Assembly (NCBI GenBank): GCA_040389905.1
Contig: JAZJZK010000009.1
Coordinates: 32,001-96,000 of the forward strand
Reading direction: 5' to 3'
Source of the DNA: Gemmatimonadota bacterium
GTDB taxonomy: Bacteria; Gemmatimonadota; Gemmatimonadetes; Gemmatimonadales; Gemmatimonadaceae
DNA: 64,000 bases
Shown: one piece after another, positions 1 through 16,621 of the stretch
Numbering within the stretch: position 1 is the stretch's first letter
Layout of the letters: the number at the start of each line of letters is the position of its first letter
Position numbers and translations under genes: made by a program
Notes under the pieces: generated by a model
Told to the model about the DNA's origin: nothing
Databases searched by the model: none
What the model saw: only the letters and a program-made list of their open reading frames with translations

Positions 1-2
1 AG

Positions 3-1157
3 CGGAATCCCATTTTTACCGTGGCCGATGGCGTGTTCTGGCTGTCTCAGGTCACGGACCGCAACTCGGTGGTCAGGAAGCTTCAGGCGATGAAAGTTCG
101 TGGCCGCGCGACGATGCCTGGACTCCACACGTTCCGCATTACCAACGACGGCGTCGAGGTGTTTCCGCGCATTCCCGAGCAACAGCTCGAGCGGCGCGCG
201 ACGTCGAGTCGCCGATTGGCCACGGGAGTTCCCGGGCTCGACGAAGCGATGGGCGGCGGCATTCCAGCGGGGGACGCCGTGATGCTTGCTGGTCCCGCCG
301 GAAGCGGCAAGACGACCTTCGCCACCCAGTTCGCCGCCGAAGGGCTGCGGCAGAAGGAAGCGGTGATCATCGTCGTCTTCGAGGAGTACCCAGAGGAATA
401 CATCGCGCGCGCGAAATCACGCAATCAGGACATGGCCGCCTCGATCGAGGCGGGCAAGCTGAGACTGATCTATCTGAGGCCGCTCGATCTGTCGGTCGAC
501 GAAACGCTCGCCGAGATCCTCGAGGCGGTGAAGGACCTCGGAGCCACGCGCGTCATCATCGATTCGCTCTCCGGCTTCGAGGTTGCGCTCGCCCCAGCGT
601 TTCGTGAGGACTTTCGCGAGTCGCTCTATCGGCTGGTCGGTGCACTGACCGCCACTGGCGTGACGATCTTCATGACGACGGAGATCGTCGGAGAATACCC
701 TCACGTGCGCTTCACGACGGAGAAGGTGTCCTTCATTACCGACGACATCATCGTGCAGCGTTTCGTGGAATTCGATGGCGCGTTGCGCACCGTGCTCGCG
801 ATTCACAAGATGCGCGGCAGTGAGCACAGCCGGGACTTCCGCGATTACGAGATCGGTGCGAATGGCGCGGTGGTGGGCGGGCCGATTCGTAATTATCGCG
901 GTATCATGACCGGAAATCCGGAGCCGCAAACTGGACCGCCGAGTTCCACACACAAGGGGCTGACCCTTCAGGAAACGTCCGTGTTCGACGTGCTCGTGCG
1001 GCTCGGCGAGTCATCGCGCGAGCGACTGCGTGAGCGCGCTGGGCTGACGCCGGCGCAACTCGGACAAGCGCTCGCGCGTCTCGAGATGCTCGGCTACGTG
1101 ACCGCCGATGGTGATGGCCAAGGGATACGTGCCATCGCACAGCCAGGCGCTTCGTGA
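3..1157 (+). CDS. KaiC/RAD55-like RecA-superfamily ATPase with C-terminal winged HTH (5' partial, runs off window)
   Basis: Frame is open to the left edge (RNPIFTVADG...). TGVPGLDE, Walker A GPAGSGKT, FEE, Walker B IIDSLS, KMRGS; preceding KVRG marks the end of a first KaiC domain. C-terminal LTLQETSVFDVL...LARLEMLGYV resembles a wHTH. Confidence 0.88.
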   Translation, partial: RNPIFTVADGVFWLSQVTDRNSVVRKLQAMKVRGRATMPGLHTFRITNDGVEVFPRIPEQQLERRATSSRRLATGVPGLDEAMGGGIPAGDAVMLAGPAGSGKTTFATQFAAEGLRQKEAVIIVVFEEYPEEYIARAKSRNQDMAASIEAGKLRLIYLRPLDLSVDETLAEILEAVKDLGATRVIIDSLSGFEVALAPAFREDFRESLYRLVGALTATGVTIFMTTEIVGEYPHVRFTTEKVSFITDDIIVQRFVEFDGALRTVLAIHKMRGSEHSRDFRDYEIGANGAVVGGPIRNYRGIMTGNPEPQTGPPSSTHKGLTLQETSVFDVLVRLGESSRERLRERAGLTPAQLGQALARLEMLGYVTADGDGQGIRAIAQPGAS

Positions 1158-1158
1158 C

Positions 1159-2916
1159 GTGACCCACGCGACCGATTCGCACCGCTACACCGACGCGGTG
1201 GCTGGCGCGAGCACTCCCGCGGAGCAGGCATTTGCGGGCTGTCTGGCGCACGTCACGGCTGCGTTCGCCGTGACATCCGGCGTGCAACACTCGATCATTT
1301 ACGCGAATGCCGCCTTTCGCGCGCTCGTCGCGTACGGCGAGGCCGAACTCGTTGGCGCCATGCTGACACAGGCGGTGGCGCCGCGCGACGCCCACCTTTT
1401 TACGGCACTGCTCGACCGCGCGTTCCGCACAGGCCACGTTGTACGGAACAAACGGCTCGCGATCGTCAGCGATGCGCGGAAGCTCCTGTGTTGCACGGTC
1501 TGGCCGAGCCAGAACGATCGTGGAACGAGCGAGCACATGGTCATCGAATTGCGCCCGATCACCCGCGGAGAGCAAACGCTGGCGCTGCAACGCGACGTTG
1601 CCGAGCGACTCCTGCTCAGCGCACTGCGCGAACAGGATGCCGCGGCACTCGCCGAGGGATCGCGCCGCGCCGCGCAATTCCTCGCTCGGGAAAGCAGGCG
1701 CCTCGCCGAGTCGCTGCATGAAGCCACCACCAAGTTGGCCATGACCGCCATGTCGCTGCCGTATGTTGGCGATTGGTGCATCGTCGACATGCTCGATGAC
1801 GACGCGATCATGCACCGGCTGTCCATCATTCATCCGGACCCGGCGAAGCAGGCGATTCTCGAAGAATTGGACGGACGTTGGACTCCCGATCCGGACGACG
1901 AGTTCGGTTTACCCGCCGCGCTGCGCAACGGTGCCGCCTCGATTCTGGCCGATGACGTTGACGAGGCGCTCGGTACGGCCGCTCGGGACCCGGAGATCTA
2001 CCGCGCACTTCGCGAGCTCGGCGTCGGTCCGTTGCTCACCGTGCCGCTCGTGATTCGCGACCGGCTCATTGGAGCGGTCACGTTCGTCGGTGGTCGCAAC
2101 GATCGCCCGTTCACTCGGGACGACGTCCAACTCGCCGACGAACTGGCCAGCCGGAGCGCGGCCGCACTCGATCGCGCTCGTGCCTACGGCGAGGCCATCG
2201 CGTTGACCGCGCGCGCCGATTCCGCGAGCAATGCGAAGAGCATGTTCCTTGGGATGATGAGCCACGAACTCCGCACGCCGCTCAATGCCATTGGCGGCTA
2301 CGTCGACCTCATCGACATGGAGCTCCGTGGGCCGGTCACGGCCGCGCAACGCATCGATCTGGCCCGCATCCGCAGCAATCAAAGGTATTTGTTGGGGCTC
2401 ATCACTGACCTCCTCAGCTTTACGAAGCTCGGCAGCGGCCAGCTGACGTTCAACACGACGACCCTTCTGGCGACCGACGTGCTCCAGGCCAGCGCGAACA
2501 TGATCGAGCCCCTGCTGGCTGAAAAGACGCTCCGCTTCGAGCCCGTGATCTGTGCGCCGAATATCTATGCGCTCGGTGACCGGGAGAAGGTCGTCCAGAT
2601 TCTCGTCAATCTACTGTCCAATGCCATCAAGTTCACGGCGAACGGAGGGCGAATCGCGATGACGTGCGAGACGACGGATGCGTTCGTGCTGGTCCACGTG
2701 GCCGATGATGGGATCGGCGTGCCGCCAGACAAAGTCGAACTCATCTTCGATCCCTTCGTCCAGGTCAACGGCGGAGCCACGCGCCATGAAGGTGGCATCG
2801 GGCTCGGCTTGGCCATCAGCCGCGGGCTCGCGCGCGGAATGCGCGGTAACCTGACCGTCGAGACCGAGCTGCACCACGGGGCCCGGTTCACACTCTCATT
2901 GCCGCGCGCGGTCTAG
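1159..2916 (+). CDS. GAF-domain sensor histidine kinase
   Basis: GAF (DWCIVD...VPLVIRDRLIGAV), H-box MSHELRTPLN, NLLSNAIKFT, DDGIG, GIGLGLAI. GTG at 1159 directly follows the KaiC stop. Confidence 0.9.
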   Translation: MTHATDSHRYTDAVAGASTPAEQAFAGCLAHVTAAFAVTSGVQHSIIYANAAFRALVAYGEAELVGAMLTQAVAPRDAHLFTALLDRAFRTGHVVRNKRLAIVSDARKLLCCTVWPSQNDRGTSEHMVIELRPITRGEQTLALQRDVAERLLLSALREQDAAALAEGSRRAAQFLARESRRLAESLHEATTKLAMTAMSLPYVGDWCIVDMLDDDAIMHRLSIIHPDPAKQAILEELDGRWTPDPDDEFGLPAALRNGAASILADDVDEALGTAARDPEIYRALRELGVGPLLTVPLVIRDRLIGAVTFVGGRNDRPFTRDDVQLADELASRSAAALDRARAYGEAIALTARADSASNAKSMFLGMMSHELRTPLNAIGGYVDLIDMELRGPVTAAQRIDLARIRSNQRYLLGLITDLLSFTKLGSGQLTFNTTTLLATDVLQASANMIEPLLAEKTLRFEPVICAPNIYALGDREKVVQILVNLLSNAIKFTANGGRIAMTCETTDAFVLVHVADDGIGVPPDKVELIFDPFVQVNGGATRHEGGIGLGLAISRGLARGMRGNLTVETELHHGARFTLSLPRAV

Positions 2917-2952
2917 CCAACGAGCGCGAGCGAACACGCGGTCTGCTTCGCT

Positions 2953-5900
2953 TCAGGCGTCCAGCGCCTCCCGAATGCGCTGTAACAGGAACGCGGGCGA
3001 GAACGGCTTGGGGACGAACCCGGCACCCGTCTGTTCGACACCCAGTCGAGTCGCCGCATCCTCCGCGTATCCCGACATGAACAGGACGACCACCTGCGGC
3101 TGTTGAATCAGGAGCGCTTCCGCGAGCTGCAGCCCGTTCATCTCCGGCATCACGACGTCGGTGAGCAACAGGTGAATCGGGGTTGGATGGTGCGCGGCGA
3201 TCTCCAGTGCTTCCTTCCCGTTGCGGGCTTCGAGTACTGTGTAACCCTTGGCCGACAGCACGCGCCGCGCGATATCGCGAAGGGCGTCCATGTCCTCCAC
3301 GACGAGGATTGTCTCCGATCCCCGCGTGTTACGGAGCACCGCGTCATCCTGCCCGCCGCTGAGCGGCCGCGCGACCACTGGAAGGAAAATGCTGAACGTC
3401 GTCCCCTTGCCGACATCGGAATCGACGTGCAGGTAGCCGCCGGATTGCTTCACGATTCCGTACACCGTCGCGAGCCCGAGGCCTGTGCCTTCTCCGACCG
3501 CCTTGGTCGTGAAGAATGGCTCGAAGATGCGTGCGCGCACTTCGGGCGAGATCCCAATTCCGCTATCGGCTACGGAGATCGCGACATACGTGCCCGGCAC
3601 CACGATCGACTGGTCCTCCATCTCGTCCGACGTGGTGAGTTCGACCTCGCTGGTCTTGATGCACAAACGTCCCCCCTCAGGCATCGCATCCCGGGCGTTC
3701 ACCGCGAGGTTGAGGATAACCTGCTCCAACTGGCCCGGATCCGCTTCGATGAATCCGAGTGCGTCCGCAAGCCGCGTTTCGACGATGACGTCCTCGCGGA
3801 TGAGGCGCAGCAACATCGGGCGCATTCCGGTGACGATGCTATTCATGTCGAGGACGCGGCTTTCGAGAATCTGCTTGCGCGAGAAGGCCAGCAGTTGTCG
3901 CGTCAGCGCGGCCGCGCGGTCGGCCGCATCGCGGATCTCGATGACGTCAGGCCGCTGTGGGTGGCTTCCGGGGAGATCCTCGAGCAGGAACTCCACGCTG
4001 CCCTTGATGACCGTGAGAAGATTGTTGAAGTCATGGGCGACGCCGCCGGCGAGCTGCCCCACCGCTTCCATTTTCTGCGCTTGGCGCAGCTGTTCCTCGA
4101 GCTGGCGGTTCAGCGTCGTATCGCGAAAAACCGTATGGATCGCATTCCGTCCCTCAAACTCGAACAGCACGGACGAGACTTCCATGTGACGCGTAACGCC
4201 ATCGAGTGTGACCCAGCGCATATTCGTTGAGGGCACTGACTCGCCACGTCCAATCCGAAAAAGCCGGTCCTTCTCGGCGATCCTCGATTCCGGATGCACG
4301 AGCGCGATCTTCGATTGCCCGATGAGATCGGCGGCGGACGATGCCCCTAAAATGCGTGCCGCCGATCCGTTCGCGAAGACGATATTCCCGTCAACGTGAA
4401 TCAGGATGCCATCCGGCGAGAGCTCCACGAGCGTGCGATACTGCTCTTCACTCTCTCGGAGGGCATTCGCCGCGGAAACCTCCCCCGACACGTCAACGCC
4501 GTGCAGGAGGACTCCGGAGATAGCGCCGTCCGCCTCTTCCATTGGCTGGAGCACAAAATTCACGACCTGCGCGTGTTCCTCACCCGTTCTCCCGTGAAGC
4601 GTCATCGTCGCATGCGTGCCGACGTACGGCCGTCCTGTGGCGAGTACCTCATCGGCGCGTGCGAAGAGTCGCTTCCCGGAGTCCTCCGTGATCGCGTCCC
4701 TCCCCGCAATTCCCATCGGGTTTCGTCCGATGAGGCGAATGAACTCGTGGTTCGCCATTTCAAAGACGTGCGCGGGTCCGCGCATCACCGCGATAAAGGC
4801 CGGTGATTCCGTGAAGATGGCAGCGAGCCTGTTCCGCTCGAACTCGAGCGACTCGACCAGCCGAACGCGCTCCCGCTCTTTCTCCTGACGTTCGGTCACG
4901 TCGACGTTTACGCCCACCACACAAGTGATCGTTCCGTCCGCGTCGCGGATGGGCGCCGCAGAATTGAGGATGGACAGCCACTTCCCATCACTACGTCGCA
5001 TCTCGATGAGCTGGCCGTTCACCGCGTGCCCGGTCCGAAGCGCAACCGACGCCGGCCAGTCCTCTGGTGTCAACTCCCGACCCGTGTCGGCGAACCAGGC
5101 CGTGATGAGGCCGTAGTCCTTGGTCGAATCCGCATGCGGAAGTGGAGCACCCCAGATCTGTAGCAAGGCGGCGTTTGCGTGAGTAACGCCTCCCTTGGCA
5201 TTGGTGATGACAACGCCAACAGGCATTGCCTCGAGCGTTGCCTCGAGCAGCCTCCGCTCGAGTTGCGCCTCGGCGAATGCCGCTTCGGCCGCGCGCTCCG
5301 CCCGAACCCGTTCCGTCACGTCCGTCGGGAGCACGATCTGGCATGGCCGACCATCCAACTCGATCGAATGCAGTACCACATCGACGTCGATCGCTTCCCC
5401 CGATTTCCGCCGGTGCTTCGTGACACCCAGCCTGGTGAGGCCGGTCGGACGCGTCAGCTTGGCCGCATCGATCGCGTTCCGCTCCTGCGGAACGACGAGA
5501 TCGTAGGCGGACAACTCGAGGAATTCATCGAGCGCATACCCGTAGAGCGCCAGCGCAGCCGCGTTCGCGGAAATGCATCGGGTCGTCTCGCTCTCCGCAA
5601 CCCAGAGGGGCGCCGGATTGCTCTCGAAGAGCATGCGATAGCGCTCGGCGCTCTCGCGCAACTCGCGCTCGGTGCGCAGGCGCTCCGTCACGTTCTGATG
5701 GGCGACCATGACGCGCTGCGCGCCATCCATCCGGACGCGCGTCGCGTCGAGCGTGAACCACCGCTCCGCGTCGGGCGAATGACACGGATACATCATCGTG
5801 AAGCGGTCGCGCTCTCCCGCGAGCATCTGTCGCAGTCCTTTTGCGACGCCGCCGGCCGACTCATCACCGCCGAGTGCCGCTGTGTCGCAGACCTGGAGAT

Positions 5901-6519
5901 AGCTCTCGCCTCGCCCGGCAAGCGCCTCGGCGTATCCATTGTCCTCGGCGAACGTCTGCCACGCACGGTTGACCTCGATGATTCGTCCGCGCTCATCGAG
6001 AATGGCGACGTGATCGCTCAACGCATCGAACGCGGAGCGAAAGAACGCACGCGTGCTCCGCAACTCTCGTTCGATCCGGGTTCGCTCCAACGCGTAGCGC
6101 ACGCTCCGCTCGAGCGGGCCAGCCCGCAGCTCGGATTTTTCCAGCAGGTGCGCAATGCCGGCGCGCGATGCTGCTTCATCGACTTGGTGGCTTGCCATGC
6201 CCGTGAGCAGGACCACCGCCACACTCAGTGTCGAGCCGAATGCTTCCTCCAGCAGGTCGAGTCCGCTCCGCGCGCCGAGGCCATGATCCAGCAGGATGAC
6301 ATCGTACACGCCGATTCTGATCGCATGCAGCGCAGTCGCATAGCTGTGCACGCAATCCGTCGAACAGGTGAACCACGGAATCTCGGAAAGTGCATGCCGA
6401 GTCAACGCGGCGTCCTCCTCGTCATCATCGATGACCAGGACGCGCAGATGCGTTGTTCCGTCGTTCTCGGCGAGACTCACGCGGCGCGTGACGTCCATGC
6501 GATCGGCGAATTGCATCAC
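2953..6519 (-). CDS. Multi-PAS hybrid sensor histidine kinase with N- and C-terminal receiver domains
   Basis: N-terminal VLVIDDD/LLD receiver, several PAS/PAC domains, [26 protein letters not shown]-terminal receiver LLLTDVVMP. The GTG start overlaps the upstream stop. Confidence 0.92.
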
Positions 6520-6959
6520 GCCGGCAGGTCGACGATCTCGAACCAATACTGTCCGAGTCCGCGCATTGCCCGGACGAGCCCATCGAAGGTTACCGGTTTC
6601 GTGACGAACGAATTCACTCCCAGGTCGTAGCCGCGAAAGACGTCTTCCTCCGCGGAGGAGGTGGTGAGGATGACCACCGGAATCTGACGAAGGGATTCAT
6701 CCTTCTTGATGGCCGCGAGGCACGCGAACCCGTCGCGCTTGGGCATCTTGATGTCGAGGAGAATCAGGCCCGGCCGCGGTGCGCTTCCAATGGCGGAATA
6801 CCGGCCATGCCCGCGCAGATAATCCATGAGCTCGTCGCCATCCTCCACAAAATGCACATCGTTCGCAACGCGGGCGAGCTTGAGCGCTTCGCGCGCGAAC
6901 TCGCGATCTTCCTCATCATCGTCCGCGATAAGAATGTGAATCGGTTGATTGTCCGTCAT
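6516..6959 (-). CDS. Single-domain response regulator (Rcp1-like)
   Basis: ILIADDD, LILLDIKMP, ILTTS, NSFVTKP; ATGA overlap with the upstream kinase. Confidence 0.92.
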   Translation of the reverse strand: MTDNQPIHILIADDDEEDREFAREALKLARVANDVHFVEDGDELMDYLRGHGRYSAIGSAPRPGLILLDIKMPKRDGFACLAAIKKDESLRQIPVVILTTSSAEEDVFRGYDLGVNSFVTKPVTFDGLVRAMRGLGQYWFEIVDLPA

Positions 6960-8110
6960 GCAACACACTGTGGAGGAAGAGGGGTGCGGCGTGCGATCAC
7001 CTGTGATGGCGCGGCGGGAAGCGTCACACGGAATCGGCTGCCCTCATCCGGCGTACCGTCTGCGCGGATCACACCGCCGTGTCGTTCCACGATCCGACGT
7101 GCGAGTGCGAGCCCCATTCCACTGCCAGCGTAGGCCGTCCGGCCGTTCAGACGCTCCAGCGGTTCGAAGATCACTTCGGCGTGCCGTGGCTCGAATCCGA
7201 TCCCGTTGTCCGCGACGCAGACGCCGGCTGATCCCTTCCGCAGCGTCGCGGCGTCGGGGTCGCACGCGTCAATGTCGATTGTCAGGACCACGTCGAGGCG
7301 ACGGAACTTCAGCGCATTCGAGATGAGATTCTGGAAGAGCTGACGCAGGAGTGTCGGATCACCTTCGAAAATCGGAAGCGCACCGACGGTGACCACGGCG
7401 CCAGCCGTGGCGATGGCAGACTCGAGGTCCACCAGAACGTCTCGTACGATCTGGTTCGCATCGACAGGGCCCATTCGCTGCGGGGCGGACAATCGCGCAA
7501 GTGCGAGCAGATCGTTGATGAGCGCCTGCATCCGCGTCGCCGCATGCATCATCCGCCCGACGTAGTCGCGCCCCAACGCCGTGGGCAGCGCGTCCGCTGT
7601 GCGCTCGAGCATATCGCCGTATGTCCGGATCTTCCGCAACGGTTCGTTGAGGTCGTGCGACGCAATCGCCGCGAACTGCTCCAGCTCCCGATTCGAGCGC
7701 TCCAACTCCCGCGAGCGCTCCGCAAGTGCGCGCTCCGCTGTCCGTCGCTCGGTGATGTCGTCAATGGCGAGCAGAATGAGGTACTCGTGTTGCTCCGGCC
7801 GAATGATCTCGCATGCATTGAGCAGCATCGAGCGCGCGCCGAGGAGAGGAAAGACGTGCTCGACGGGGAAGTCGGAGATTTCGCGATGCTTCGGAAGAAC
7901 GTCGAGCAATAGCCGACGAAGCTCGGCAATATCCCATTGTCCATTGCCGAGTTCGAACAGGTTTTGTTCGATCGTGGTGTCGGGGCTCGCGTGGAAGGCT
8001 GCGAAGTACGCGCGATTGGCGGCGACGACGCGGAATTCCGCGTCAAGGACCAGCAAGGGCTCGCGAATCGTGTCGGCGATATAGCCGCTGACGGCGAGGT
8101 GGCTCAGCAC
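6956..8110 (-). CDS. PAS sensor histidine kinase (phytochrome-kinase-like output module)
   Basis: REPLLVLD PAS, SNRELEQFAAIASHDLNEPLRKI, NLISNALKF, GSGMGLAL. Confidence 0.9.
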   Translation of the reverse strand: MLSHLAVSGYIADTIREPLLVLDAEFRVVAANRAYFAAFHASPDTTIEQNLFELGNGQWDIAELRRLLLDVLPKHREISDFPVEHVFPLLGARSMLLNACEIIRPEQHEYLILLAIDDITERRTAERALAERSRELERSNRELEQFAAIASHDLNEPLRKIRTYGDMLERTADALPTALGRDYVGRMMHAATRMQALINDLLALARLSAPQRMGPVDANQIVRDVLVDLESAIATAGAVVTVGALPIFEGDPTLLRQLFQNLISNALKFRRLDVVLTIDIDACDPDAATLRKGSAGVCVADNGIGFEPRHAEVIFEPLERLNGRTAYAGSGMGLALARRIVERHGGVIRADGTPDEGSRFRVTLPAAPSQVIARRTPLPPQCVA

Positions 8111-8238
8111 GGCGCTGAATGACTTCGGCGCTGGTGGAGCAGGGGGTCAATCAATTGTTCACGGTGGAGGCTAGTCGAGAGTCTCGGCACCGGACCTGGA
8201 ATTCTGTACCCTCTTGTACATACGTACGCCTGGACTCA

Positions 8239-8311
8239 GTACAAACACATACGTACGAAGTACCCGGAACCGTGTATCCGGACTGGCATCCACACCAAAA
8301 GGAGCCATCGA
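8239..8311. repeat. Left arm of ~73-bp imperfect inverted repeat enclosing the four-helix-bundle gene
   Basis: GTACAAACACATACGTACGAAGTACCCGGAACCGTGTATCCGGACTGGCATCCACACCAAAAGGAGCCATCGA is reverse-complementary to 8745-8817 (about 61/73 by hand alignment). Confidence 0.9.
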
Positions 8312-8385
8312 CACATGCGCTGAAATGACTCGCAGCTGCAACAGAATGGTGACGCATTGACGGGGCGAGGCAGGCAATTTCGGTC

Positions 8386-8739
8386 ATGCATGACTTCCGC
8401 AGACTTCGGGTTTGGCAGCTCTCCCGCGAACTTGCAGCGGAGCTCGGCAAGGTTGTCCAGACCTTCCCGCGCTCGGACCGTGGCGTCATCGCGAATCAAC
8501 TGCGCCGATCGGCCCTTTCAGTACCTGCGAACATTTCGGAGGGCTGCGGTGACGATTCGCGTGCAGAGACGCTACGCTTCCTGCGCATGGCCGTGCGATC
8601 CGCTACGGAAACGGAAAACCACCTCGTTGCCGCCGCCGACGCGGGTTTCCTCCGCCGGGAGGTATCCGATCGGTTCATCGAGAGGACCGTCTCCATTCAA
8701 AAGATGCTGCGAGCCCTGATCCAGAATCTCCCGAAATAG
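8386..8739 (+). CDS. Four-helix-bundle protein (23S rRNA IVP-like, TIGR02436/PF05635-type)
   Basis: F..LRVWQ.S, FP, QLRRSALSVPANISEG, FL..A..S..E family signature; 117 aa. Confidence 0.9.
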   Translation: MHDFRRLRVWQLSRELAAELGKVVQTFPRSDRGVIANQLRRSALSVPANISEGCGDDSRAETLRFLRMAVRSATETENHLVAAADAGFLRREVSDRFIERTVSIQKMLRALIQNLPK

Positions 8740-8744
8740 TTGGA

Positions 8745-8817
8745 TCGACGGCTCCTCTTGGGTCGGATGCCAGTCCGGGTACCTGGTTCCAGGTACCTCG
8801 TACGTCTGTGGTTGTAC
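8745..8817. repeat. Right arm of the inverted repeat, starting 6 bp after the four-helix-bundle stop
   Basis: TCGACGGCTCCTCTTGGGTCGGATGCCAGTCCGGGTACCTGGTTCCAGGTACCTCGTACGTCTGTGGTTGTAC; contains 7-mer units GTACCTG/GTTCCAG/GTACCTC/GTACGTC. Confidence 0.9.
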
Positions 8818-9016
8818 GAAATACCGAAGTACGTCAGTTCAGCCCTGCCCCCGCCAGATTCGCCCCTGAGCCCCCCGCGCGCTACCTTATAGCCACTATC
8901 ACGAAGATTCCGAAAACCGTCACACCCGGGAGTTCTTGACACCCCCGCCACCCGCGGCGAGTTTCACGCTCTGGCCTTTAGTTCGCCCGTAACCCAAGAA
9001 CCGACAACATCAGTTT

Positions 9017-10843
9017 ATGGCCGCTCCGGTCGCCTCCAGCGAACGCCTTGGCGATCTCCTCGTCCGCGAGGGGCTCATCACGCGCGAGCAACTGGAAAAG
9101 GCCCTCCAGGAGCAGCGCCAGAGCGGCACCCGCGTCGGCTATAATCTCGTCAAGCTCGGCTTCATCCCTGAAACCGAGCTCACCAAGATGCTCGCGCGGC
9201 AGTACAAGATGCCCGCCGTCGATCTCTCCAAGTTCGAGGTCGACCCCCGAATCGCCAAGCTCATCCCCGGCGACCTCGCGATCAAGCATCTCGTTCTGCC
9301 ACTCAAGCGCGACGGCCGCACGCTCACCGTCGCCATGGCCGACCCGACGAACCTCGGCGTCCTCGACGACCTGAAGTTCATCACGCGCTACGACATCTTC
9401 CCCGTCATCGGCGGCGAGTTCACGCTCAAGAGCGCCATCGAGAAGCTGTACGAAAACACCGCCGACTCCCAGGTCAACGATCTCCTCAGTGTGATCGACG
9501 ACATGGAGAACGACGTCGAAGTCGTCGAGGAGAAGGAGGAGGATCAGGCCGCTGCGCAGCTCAGCGCGCAGATGGAAGATGCGCCGGTCGTGAAGCTGAT
9601 CAACGCCATCCTCACCGACGCCGTGAAGAAAGGCGCGTCGGATATTCATTTCGAGTGCTTCGAGCACGACATCCGCGTGCGCTACCGCATCGACGGTGCG
9701 CTCATGGAAGTGATGAAGCCGCCCATGAAGCTCAAGGCGGCCCTCATCTCGCGCTTCAAGATCATGTCGCAGCTGAACATCGCCGAGCGACGCGTGCCGC
9801 AGGACGGGCGTATCAAGCTGAAGATGGGCAAGAAAGTCATCGACTACCGCGTGTCGACGCTGCCCACGCTCTTCGGCGAAAAGATCGTGCTCCGAATTCT
9901 CGACAAGGGCAACCTGACGCTCGACCTCGAGAAGTTCGGCATCGAGCCCAAGGCCGAGAAGGACTTGATGGAAGCGGTGTCGAATCCCTACGGCATGGTG
10001 CTCGTCACGGGCCCCACGGGATCAGGCAAGACGACGACGCTCTACTCGGCGCTCTCGAAGGTCAATAACATCGACGTCAACATCATGACCGCCGAAGATC
10101 CCGTGGAGTACAATCTCTACGGGGTCAATCAGGTGCTGGTGCGCACGGAAATCGGCATGACGTTCGCTGCGGCGCTCAAGGCGTTCCTGCGACAGGATCC
10201 GAACATCATCATGGTCGGCGAGATCCGCGACCTCGAAACCGGCGGTATCGCCATCAAGGCGGCACTCACCGGCCACATGGTGCTTTCCACCCTGCACACC
10301 AACTCGGCGCCGGAGACCGTCACCCGCCTCATGGACATGGGTCTCGAGCCATTCAACGTGGCGTCGGCGCTCAACCTGGTGCTCGCGCAACGACTGCTGC
10401 GCCGCATCTGCGGCAACTGCAAAATCCAGTATACGCCAAGCGCCGAGGAGTTCGACGTCGCGAAGGTGAAGTCGGACACGACCTTCCGTACGCTTCGCTT
10501 CAAGCAGGAAACCATCGACAACGCCAAGGTGAAGGCCAGCCCCGAGGCGATGCCGCTCCTTCAGAATGTGACACTCGACACACCGGTCATGCAGTTGCCC
10601 TTCTTCAAGGGAAAAGGCTGTGACAAGTGTGGTGGCAGCGGCATGAAGGGCCGCCAGGGTGTCTACGAGGTGATGCCGATGAGTCCGAACCTCCGGAAGC
10701 TCATTCTTCAGAATGTCGGCGCAGCCGAAATCCGTGATGCGGCCGTGGATGAAGGAATGCTCACGCTGCGTATGGACGGCTGGGTCAAGGTCATGAAAGG
10801 CATCACGACGCTCGAACAGGTTGTTCGCGAGACCTCGGCATAG
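9017..10843 (+). CDS. pilB: Type IV pilus assembly ATPase PilB with MshEN domain
   Basis: RLGDLLVREGLI...LEKALQEQ MshEN, ASDIH, PQDGR, GPTGSGKTTT, EDPVEY, LRQDP, GHMVLSTLHTN, two CxxC. Confidence 0.95.
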   Translation: MAAPVASSERLGDLLVREGLITREQLEKALQEQRQSGTRVGYNLVKLGFIPETELTKMLARQYKMPAVDLSKFEVDPRIAKLIPGDLAIKHLVLPLKRDGRTLTVAMADPTNLGVLDDLKFITRYDIFPVIGGEFTLKSAIEKLYENTADSQVNDLLSVIDDMENDVEVVEEKEEDQAAAQLSAQMEDAPVVKLINAILTDAVKKGASDIHFECFEHDIRVRYRIDGALMEVMKPPMKLKAALISRFKIMSQLNIAERRVPQDGRIKLKMGKKVIDYRVSTLPTLFGEKIVLRILDKGNLTLDLEKFGIEPKAEKDLMEAVSNPYGMVLVTGPTGSGKTTTLYSALSKVNNIDVNIMTAEDPVEYNLYGVNQVLVRTEIGMTFAAALKAFLRQDPNIIMVGEIRDLETGGIAIKAALTGHMVLSTLHTNSAPETVTRLMDMGLEPFNVASALNLVLAQRLLRRICGNCKIQYTPSAEEFDVAKVKSDTTFRTLRFKQETIDNAKVKASPEAMPLLQNVTLDTPVMQLPFFKGKGCDKCGGSGMKGRQGVYEVMPMSPNLRKLILQNVGAAEIRDAAVDEGMLTLRMDGWVKVMKGITTLEQVVRETSA

Positions 10844-13782: not shown

Positions 13783-13828
13783 TTGCCGGTCATTAAGTAT
13801 GGCCATACATTTCAGAGTATGGCCATAC
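13783..13828 (+). promoter_or_regulatory. TA promoter (TTGCCG-17-TACATT) with two perfect GTATGGCCATAC palindromes
   Basis: Palindromes at 13797-13808 and 13817-13828; the second covers the antitoxin ATG. Confidence 0.75.
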
Positions 13829-14103
13829 CAAAGATCAAGGCGACCTACTCGCTTGACGAGGTGACCGCGAAGAAGCTCGGAGAAATCGCGCGGAGGTGGA
13901 ATACCTCCAAGTCCGGCGCGCTGTCACGGCTCATCGATCAGGGTGCGCAATCCATGTCAAACTCCGACGATGTGCAGCGCAAGCTCGACGCGTTGAAGCG
14001 TTTTCAGGAGGCAAATCGCCACATCACCCGCGAGCAATGGGACCAGTTCGAGCGGGAGCGGAAGGAGATGTGGCGCGAGCCACTCGGTGGGGAGCCCTGT
14101 TGA
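13819..14103 (+). CDS. RHH/CopG-type antitoxin (VapB-like)
   Basis: KATYSLDE...KLGEIARRWNTSKSGALSRLI ribbon-helix-helix pattern; overlaps the PIN gene. Confidence 0.75.
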   Translation: MAIPKIKATYSLDEVTAKKLGEIARRWNTSKSGALSRLIDQGAQSMSNSDDVQRKLDALKRFQEANRHITREQWDQFERERKEMWREPLGGEPC

Positions 14104-14471
14104 CGATCCATCTCGACACCAACTTCCTGGTCGCGCTCGCCAGCGACGATTCCCGCGCGACGGGCGCGGTAACTCAGTGGCTCCACGAGGATCGCGAGAT
14201 CCACGTCTCAGCGGTGGCCTGGGCCGGGTTCCTGTGTGGGCCAGTCACCGATATAGCCACGTTGCAGGCGCTGCTTCCTCCACCCGTGGCCTTCGAGGCA
14301 GACGATGCCGCAAAGGCAGCTGCGCTCTTCAATGCGACCGGACGGCGCTCGCGCTCCCTGCAGGATTGCATGATCGCCGCCGCTGCGATCCGCGCAAATG
14401 CGGAACTCGCAACGATGGACATGAAGGGTTTCCGCCGCTACGAGCAGTTCGGCCTGCGCATCGTCCGCTAG
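14100..14471 (+). CDS. PIN-domain toxin (VapC-like)
   Basis: IHLDTNFL, SAVAW, SLQDCMIAAAA, LATMD; TTG start overlaps the antitoxin stop. Confidence 0.85.
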   Translation: MTIHLDTNFLVALASDDSRATGAVTQWLHEDREIHVSAVAWAGFLCGPVTDIATLQALLPPPVAFEADDAAKAAALFNATGRRSRSLQDCMIAAAAIRANAELATMDMKGFRRYEQFGLRIVR

Positions 14472-15323: not shown

Positions 15324-15475
15324 TCGCGCTCTCCGGCTTTGGTATGCGGTCGTGATTGCGGACTCGGCCGCCGTGAACCCACTGAGTGCTTCAAATAGTG
15401 GGCCTGTCAGCCTGGGGAAACTCCCCACACGGAGCGAGAACTGGCCCCGACTGCACCGCGACTCGAAAAGAAGGA

Positions 15476-15495
15476 TTCTCATATCAGCATGAGAA
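15476..15495. promoter_or_regulatory. Inverted repeat TTCTCAT-N6-ATGAGAA upstream of nirK (candidate operator)
   Basis: Perfect 7-bp arms in an AT-rich patch ~30 bp before the nirK start. Confidence 0.5.
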
Positions 15496-15523
15496 ACTCC
15501 TCAATCGCCGAGCAGAACCGACA

Positions 15524-16621
15524 ATGATACCCACGCCTCTTTCTTCAGTGCGAATCACGGCGAGCCGGCTGTCGGCGATCGCCGCTGCGCTACTCGCGCT
15601 CGCGAACATTGCCGCCTGCGGCGCGCCGGCGGACGCCGCCGAAAGCCGCATCGGCGTTCCGGTCCGCTCGGCGCCCAGTGCCATCGTGGGTCAGGAAACC
15701 GCGATCCTCACCGCTGCGCCCAACGTGCCGCCGCCGATTACCCGCACGAACCCGACCAAGGTCATCGTCAACCTCGACGTCGTCGAGAAGACCATGCGTC
15801 TCGCCGACAGTGTCGAGTACACCATGTGGACCTTCGGGGGCTCCGTCCCGGGCAGCTTCATCCGCGTCCGCGAGGGAGATCTCGTCGAGATGCACCTGCG
15901 GAACGCGTCGAACAGCACGATGCCCCACAATATCGACCTGCACGCGGTTACCGGTCCAGGCGGAGGCGCAAAGACATCGCTCGCCATGCCGGGCCAGGAG
16001 TCGGTCTTCAGCTTCACCGCGCTCAACCCGGGCCTCTACGTCTATCACTGCGCGACCTCGCCCGTGCCGATGCACATGGCGAATGGCATGTACGGCATGA
16101 TTCTCGTCGAGCCCAAGGCGGGACTCCCGAAGGTCGATCGCGAATTCTACGTGATGCAAAGCGAGTTCTATACGACGGGCAAGTTCGGCGCGCATGGCCT
16201 GCAGTCACTCGACATGGACAAGGGCGTCGACGAAAAGCCCACCTACGTCGTCTTCAACGGCAGCGTCGGCGCGCTGACGGGCGACAAGGCACTGAAAGCA
16301 AACGTCGGCGAACGCGTGAGAATCTTCTTCGGCGACGCAGGCCCGAACCTCACGAGTTCCTTTCACGTGATCGGCGAAGTATTCGACAACGTGTACGCCG
16401 AGGGCGGCACGACCGTGAGCCACAACGTGCAGACGACGCTCGTGCCGTCCGGTGGCGCGGTGATCGTGGAGTTCGGTGTCGAGAATCCTGGCGACCTGAT
16501 TCTGGTCGATCACTCGATCTTCCGCGCCTTCAACAAGGGAGCACTCGGCGTCCTCACCGTCACGGGCAACGGCGACAAGAAGATCTTCTCGGCGCTCAAG
16601 GGCCTTGGCATCGCCGAGTAG
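15524..16621 (+). CDS. nirK: Copper-containing nitrite reductase (AniA-like lipoprotein)
   Basis: [36 protein letters not shown]; lipobox-like IAAC. Confidence 0.93.

Follow-up and report, generated by a model that had tools for sequence, protein, structure and literature searches.

DNA uptake sequences, as found in Neisseria and Haemophilus, are species-specific, tied to transformation and often arranged as inverted pairs after genes. They are 9-12 bp long, number in the thousands, occur within coding DNA as well, and are read at the cell surface. The RAYT proteins of REP/REPIN repeats are HUH transposases. For the PF05635 four-helix-bundle proteins, in contrast, we know of no catalytic activity. 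In the available sections of PMC3733652, REP families are described as a gene with its cognate repeats and many gene-less palindromes, which are species-specific and located at gene ends. An intervening sequence (IVS) of Coxiella with an S23p ORF, a 28-bp stem, terminal inverted repeats, heptamers and excision by RNase III is reported in the accessible part of PMC4990558. The related Avd protein forms a pentamer that binds an RNA stem-loop with all five protomers and with flipped-out bases (excerpt of 10.1101/2023.10.23.563531). Members of the S23p/four-helix-bundle family have also been located inside cas loci (PMC3936711, in part), and the excerpt of PMC4679880, which deals with TAACTGA repeats, makes no mention of this protein family. 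Among the papers listed in our full-text searches of literature outside subscription journals, none described a PF05635 protein in connection with competence or with cognate hairpins dispersed in a genome.

The element described here was found in a window of 64,000 nucleotides (the whole stretch of DNA that was analysed; coordinates without a contig number refer to it). Its features and direct neighbours are:

8215..8841, no strand: whole element, composed of arm, promoter leader, four-helix-bundle gene and inverted arm (local BLAST, arm profile)
8215..8311, plus strand: left arm, 97 bp, with the core 8239-8311 and GTAC-like units about 7 bases apart
8319..8380, plus strand: promoter-like motif with the core GTGACG at 8349-8354 and a -10-like CAATTT at 8375-8380 (motif matrices)
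8386..8739, plus strand: gene of a four-helix-bundle protein, 117 aa, TIGR02436 / PF05635, with the fold of Xcc0516 and Avd
8745..8841, minus strand: right arm, reverse complement of the left arm at 75 of 97 positions
6956..8110, minus strand: divergent PAS/histidine kinase gene, context outside the element
9017..10843, plus strand: pilB, first gene of pilB-pilT-pilC, TIGR02538 over the cut-off, context outside the element

The arms form a gap-free inverted repeat (8215-8311 / 8745-8841, 75/97 identical, 77%, local BLAST E 2e-21), which encloses a 72-bp leader and the 117-aa ORF. The original prediction had put the complementarity of the core arms (8239-8311 and 8745-8817) at about 61 of 73 positions, which is the number we obtained, and its weaker outward pairing turned out to be a gap-free extension to 8215 and 8841. 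It had also stated correctly that the right arm closely follows the stop codon (5 intervening bases), that the unit lies upstream of pilB-pilT-pilC, and that the arms are richer in GTAC than their surroundings, with 12 occurrences in 8190-8840 versus 3.0 per kb genome-wide. The 7-bp periodicity that it described is visible in GTAC-like cores at identical offsets in both arms (1, 9, 17, 24 / 38, 45, 52, 59, 65, 71), mostly 7 apart. When the self-match was pooled over 71 arms, period 7 reached 0.45, the other periods from 2 to 12 gave 0.12-0.30, and periods 13 and 14 gave 0.35 and 0.41. Tandem Repeats Finder missed the arms, whose repeat units are degenerate. Exactly five units per arm, one for each protomer of a pentamer, are not supported, as array sizes vary.

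The ORF at 8386-8739 scores 101 bits with TIGR02436 (cut-off 24) and 99 bits with PF05635 (cut-off 33.8). Its AlphaFold model (pLDDT 95) has four helices and matches Xcc0516 (2GSC) with a TM score of 0.93, and also BT_0352 (2RLD), so that the four-helix-bundle identity given in the original prediction stands. The structural kinship to Avd that it had named was recovered as a weaker match, with TM 0.76-0.79 (PDB 4DWL, 8UBE). Both crystal structures, 2GSC and 2RLD, contain 5 chains, from which we infer that the 117-aa protein is probably a homopentamer. The gene family is under purifying selection, with dN/dS of about 0.07-0.18 in those homologue pairs whose dS is below saturation. A single query of viral contigs gave no close homologue of the protein, and in metagenomes there was none above 66%. 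Among the homologues, repeat type tracks the protein clades, in a comparison that includes pairs related by descent, and an amino-acid-to-base code was set aside.

Like the 23S rRNA IVSs of Coxiella burnetii and Leptospira, as far as they are covered by the source sections available, the element places a protein of this family between terminal inverted repeats and has heptamers near the ORF start. It differs from them in that it lies outside rRNA, between a histidine kinase gene and pilB, has degenerate arms of 97 bp with a promoter-like motif of DNA-uptake genes inside, and consists of an intact gene under purifying selection with dozens of gene-less sister copies. With REP/REPIN-RAYT systems, again to the extent of the available text, it shares dispersed intergenic palindromes that match the repeats around one gene and often touch stop codons. 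However, its gene encodes a four-helix bundle and not an HUH (Y1) tyrosine transposase, and the elements are 200-290 bp long with 7-base units. A search of the source genome, which is 85% complete, for the PF01797 (Y1/RAYT) transposase gave no hit. The fold is common to Avd, whose stem-loop-gripping pentamer is a precedent in the part of the Avd report available, but the identity to Avd is 11-12%, and unlike in a diversity-generating retroelement (DGR) there is neither a reverse transcriptase nor a template/variable repeat beside the gene. Only two reverse transcriptase matches were found in the genome, both on contig C31. These are group II intron-type ORFs (C31:1050-4316), apparently broken or nested, and next to them lies a gene pair that we take to be a HigBA-like toxin-antitoxin system. 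In contrast to DNA uptake sequences, the repeats described here are long, occupy about 44 sites, are intergenic wherever paired, and have a predicted cytoplasmic reader. By membership, the element is thus neither an rRNA IVS nor a REPIN-RAYT system nor a DGR, yet it is built like the first two.

The source genome (5.08 Mb) was searched with a profile of the arms. There were 80 matches at 44 sites, 36 of which are inverted pairs; the other 8 sites have a solo arm. The 8215-8841 element is the only gene-bearing one of the 36 paired elements, and the only one with an inner part of 430 bp; in the other 35 the inner part measures 32-100 bp, and 23 of these gene-less inner parts belong to one conserved, asymmetric type. 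Gene context was taken from a simple gene caller, which gave 4089 genes: every one of the 36 paired elements is intergenic, 15 of them lie in gaps between convergent genes (573 of 4024 gene pairs overall), and 28 have a stop codon at most 20 bp away. Because the promoter motif is missing from the gene-less copies (best score 6.2 bits) and their inner parts have no detectable homology to that of the 8215-8841 element, we rejected the idea that they are simple ORF deletions.

The arm family is genome-specific. The arm of the 8215-8841 element had 0 matches among 54 congeners, and the arms of six congener gene cassettes matched their own genomes at at least 40, 45, 35, 46, 19 and 19 places, including short elements whose inner parts are genome-specific. 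Among the matches listed, strong cross-matches of congener arms occurred only within the sister pairs G009/G015 and G004/G001, and weak ones only in G021 and G022, with the arm of G009. The same one-to-one relation between gene and repeat is seen within the source genome. It contains five PF05635 genes, whose flanks match 39, 4, 22, 33 and 28 loci and thereby define five non-overlapping families. Three GxxExxY genes (C2:51844-52269, C14:56778-57197, C15:74839-75240) and one GIY-YIG gene (C13:67317-67640), each with the promoter motif described below, have four further non-overlapping repeat families (5-123 loci). Repeats likewise adjoin recQ and pilV.

Flanking repeats were scored at 107 homologue loci, i.e. 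those with full flanks out of 114. The inverted-repeat score was at least 20 at 87 of them, and the direct-repeat score was that high at 11; the repeat periods were mainly 7, followed by 8 and 6. As a control, 7 of 971 small genes of the source genome reached the same inverted score, among them the gene at 8386-8739 itself and two GxxExxY genes. In other phyla, inverted flanks were present at 42 of 76 loci in genomes, and on viral contigs at 33 of 64 loci. The expectation of the original prediction that paralogues would have inverted flanks was therefore borne out across homologues and only partly in the source genome: three of the four other paralogues are not enclosed by arms, each lying instead beside a whole hairpin of its own family. 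At one congener locus (L197, G024:C380), a G024-type arm pair surrounds 627 bp, possibly with another cargo gene.

These data bear on the question of whether the gene belongs to the repeat at all. An ordinary MITE- or REPIN-like repeat could be moved in trans by an unrelated enzyme, and the four-helix-bundle gene would then be a host competence gene that acquired arms. The very high repeat load of the genome would fit, with 771 of 2309 intergenic regions containing a repeat of a family of at least 10 copies and 33% of the genes adjoining some large repeat family. So would the missing leader of the gene-less copies, the one-sided repeats at three of the five paralogues and the two reverse transcriptases on contig C31. 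We nevertheless consider this explanation very unlikely, given the excess of inverted flanks at homologue loci over small control genes, their recurrence in other phyla, the distinct family of each paralogue, and the failure to find a Y1/RAYT transposase in the 85% complete genome. Several large repeat families of the genome, such as GGGGACA hairpins (18 regions), have no neighbouring four-helix-bundle gene.

That gene and arms form a discrete unit, as originally proposed, agrees with the absence of the gene at 28 of 28 congener pilB loci. For the further label of a self-contained cassette we see no support, the protein having no known catalytic activity. In two of these genomes (G013 and G065) the divergent kinase gene adjoins pilB with no element between, so the empty alleles sought by the original prediction do exist in relatives, but the sites are too diverged to define junctions at the base level. 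Comparable length differences are found at other sites. At a junction that we take from the sequences to be sdhC-sdhA-like, the source genome has a 294-bp element, compared with 0-37 bp in 19 of 28 congeners. Between rplI and rsfS (L391-L420, 17-310 bp), the hairpin family differs from congener to congener, and this gap is a hot spot for insertion behind the stop codon of rplI. Three elements are common to the sister species G009 and G015; G029 and G075 are plainly empty at two of the three sites, which places the insertion directly behind the stop codon, and contain other sequence at the third. In orthologous gene-less elements, 624/732 arm positions (85%) and 257/384 inner positions (67%) were identical, compared with 1084/1664 four-fold sites (65%), a figure biased low by the way the frame was picked. 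The count comprises six comparisons from three loci, which are not independent, and leaves out the orthologous pair L131/L465, whose anchor was not found. Gene conversion rather than selection could account for the arm conservation. Together, empty alleles, sharing between sister species and arm conservation indicate, at the level of sequence comparison, that the elements are old, have moved over evolutionary time, and are maintained in their arms. Spread is slow: copies of the arm family are mutually 74-79% alike, and elements are inherited between sister species. We saw neither a young insertion nor a target duplication, with empty alleles too diverged for junctions to be read base by base. 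Contigs of four runs at the locus included no empty-site contig, and the arm-to-arm joints among them fit other gene-less copies.

An RTGACG core, located 36-39 bases upstream of the start, is common to leaders of the homologues; a strict pattern recovers it in 38 of 113. A forward matrix was trained on 108 leaders from other genomes, of which 92 were retained, and applied to the source genome. The five paralogues ranked 2, 3, 4, 14 and 15 of 4090 genes, with the gene at 8386-8739 in position 14. The 19 genes with at least 15 bits include comEC (TIGR00361), comM (TIGR00368), radA (TIGR00416), recQ and a PilB/GspE paralogue, further a Uma2 gene, a methylase, an SNF2 helicase and two pilin-like genes, the latter recognised by eye from their N-terminal motif with no family match; cheW is a probable false match. 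A gene-call-free scan yielded 62 sites of at least 16 bits and added comEA (HHH_3), yraN directly before recA, radC, obgE before dprA, and GxxExxY, GIY-YIG and more Uma2 genes. Genes such as comEA, comEC and comM encode the machinery of natural transformation. In each of 20 congeners comM has the motif upstream, and in other families it does so in 1 of 7 genomes. For comEA, 15 starts were found, and the motif stands before the gene at 13 loci of congeners. It was present before pilB in 0 of 29 cases, before radA in 1 of 27 relatives, and before neither of two lexA genes.

In the opposite direction, a reverse matrix was obtained by Gibbs sampling from 35 comM/comEA promoters only. It scored the gene at 8386-8739 with 10.4 bits, with 8 of 4071 starts higher. 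The 99.5th percentile was exceeded by 5 of 5 paralogues of the source genome, by 70 of 80 leaders from the same genus and by 15 of 26 from the same order. With a fixed start, convergence was poor, and the numbers were 40 of 80 congener leaders and 6.5 bits for the gene at 8386-8739. Since the genes used to train the matrix have related arms, the counts from it are not independent. We infer that the shared motif is a competence promoter. The original prediction had recognised neither this promoter-like motif inside the arms nor the family of 35 gene-less elements. An SOS reading is disfavoured by the lack of a site at either lexA and by the radA count; recA may be covered via yraN-recA. In Acidobacteriota no shared motif was found, and the comM-trained motif reached p < 0.05 in 2 of 27 leaders. 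Most cassettes of Acidobacteriota and other phyla have their array directly before the start, with no room for a promoter. With no such link seen in Acidobacteriota, coupling to competence may be lineage-specific. GTCACAG or a near form, which the motif search missed, is seen in some Acidobacteriota leaders of comM (L657, L661, L663, L669) and of four-helix-bundle genes (L588, L597, L604, L607).

From the spacing between motif and start codon, the mRNA of the gene at 8386-8739 is predicted to be leaderless and to begin to the right of the left arm. Scans of 8100-9050 for standard sigma-70 promoters and terminators gave no match; since no terminator-like site was found, pilB-pilT-pilC could be reached by read-through from the element promoter. 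On the minus strand, a -10-like motif at 8884-8892 would have put the element into the 5' leader of the kinase gene; it was discarded, as it also occurs with a co-directional upstream gene (L050).

The original prediction had the arms fold into an RNA stem that loops out the ORF. In an IVS-like version of this idea, the arms would pair in a read-through mRNA, RNase III would cut the stem, the protein would bind RNA, and the gene-less copies would tune mRNA ends or stability. The element does fold far better as RNA than 20 shuffles (z = -7.35), and the position of gene-less copies behind stop codons and in convergent gaps would suit such a role. Precedents are the Coxiella IVS, in which RNase III excises a unit that has the same gene family, heptamers and terminal inverted repeats (PMC4990558), and the RNA binding of Avd (10.1101/2023.10.23.563531). 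Pairing within elements also slightly exceeds expectation (31.8 vs 30.3 of 44 columns, p = 0.03). However, arms are as similar between elements as within one (74% each), their mismatches are spread over all types with no G-U bias, and two-sided changes were found in only 4 of 53 predicted pairs (11 copies). A stem on the gene's own transcript would be impossible, because the predicted leaderless mRNA starts right of the left arm. The missing left arm and the little selection for pairing are evidence against an RNA stem, and the promoter in common with DNA-uptake genes would be left unexplained. The looped-out ORF is thus weakened, and we regard an RNA-level element as unlikely. What is conserved are the GTAC-like cores at 7-base spacing. 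They look more like arrays of binding sites that follow one consensus throughout the genome and remain able to fold as single strands.

Binding of the repeats as DNA would be compatible with a service to the host. Competence proteins might mark or protect kin DNA by means of genome-specific hairpins, possibly against the co-regulated nucleases GxxExxY, GIY-YIG and Uma2. Genome-specific arms that are kept at fixed loci across sister species, purifying selection on the genes, and the motif before several nuclease-family genes would all be expected of such a self tag. But there are merely about 44 sites in 5 Mb, all intergenic, the number and position of paralogues vary widely between congeners, as for selfish elements, and a single site holds different families in different species. 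To us, a self tag appears distinctly unlikely.

The reading we prefer, although we put it somewhat short of an even chance, is that the element with the gene at 8386-8739 is the one copy with a gene in a hairpin family specific to this genome, and that its Avd-like protein binds the arms of this family on single-stranded transforming DNA and thereby favours their spread during competence. The motif in common with DNA-uptake genes makes it likely that the protein would bind its own repeats on incoming DNA. Its expression would be timed with the uptake machinery via this motif. As transforming DNA enters in single-stranded form, the elements could fold, and an Avd-like ring would grip the cognate hairpin by reading its 7-base units. 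The ring might shield the folded element or hand it to DprA, RecA, ComM or YraN, after which host recombination would copy filled alleles over empty ones; rarely, new copies would be placed directly behind stop codons. A more general form, which is possible but which we hold with clear reservation, is that four-helix-bundle, GxxExxY and GIY-YIG minigenes with their private hairpins are transposase-free selfish elements riding natural transformation; each protein would recognise a repeat code specific to it in single-stranded DNA that enters the cell and drive it into the chromosome.

If transformation-coupled spread is correct, it would give a role to the orphan S23p/IVP family, which is large and has solved structures, and would explain 7-base repeat families at bacterial gene ends. 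How palindromic repeats without a transposase spread in bacteria is an old question. The five non-overlapping protein-repeat pairs in one genome, with more in congeners, lend themselves to a direct test of specificity. The promoter link to competence genes is the new part of the finding; the shared motif is a clue to the timing and substrate of protein action and supplies a candidate competence promoter in a little-studied soil and freshwater group.

Some further observations concern the putative competence regulon and the surroundings of the element. Sites of this regulon in the source genome are at C22:34360, C7:335264, C9:21222, C34:39935, C66:16481, C27:57354, C65:18547, C36:10626, C13:73255, C20:100830 and C6:82619, and its putative genes are comEC, comM, comEA, radC, yraN-recA, obgE-dprA, recQ, radA, the pilin-like genes and the PilB/GspE paralogue. 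The last of these (C6:82619-84622), under the shared motif, is a fusion of a PilB/GspE-type ATPase with a C-terminal NUDIX domain. Up to eight Uma2-like endonuclease genes, two of them Pfam-confirmed, have the motif (C14:191005, C6:193688, C5:267244, C3:30063, C22:89884, C5:108940, C6:195362, C53:43355), and those that were checked have no large repeat family adjoining. In the window, pilC is followed at 13783-14471 by what are presumably a small antitoxin-like ORF and a PIN-like ORF, and an ORF at 15386-16621 may be a copper nitrite reductase by its resemblance. At 15 congener loci comEA is found directly before pilB; in the source genome the two are 18.6 kb apart, and between them lies an 18-kb chemotaxis-like and two-component block (C9:21888-40110), the right part of which is window 1-8110.
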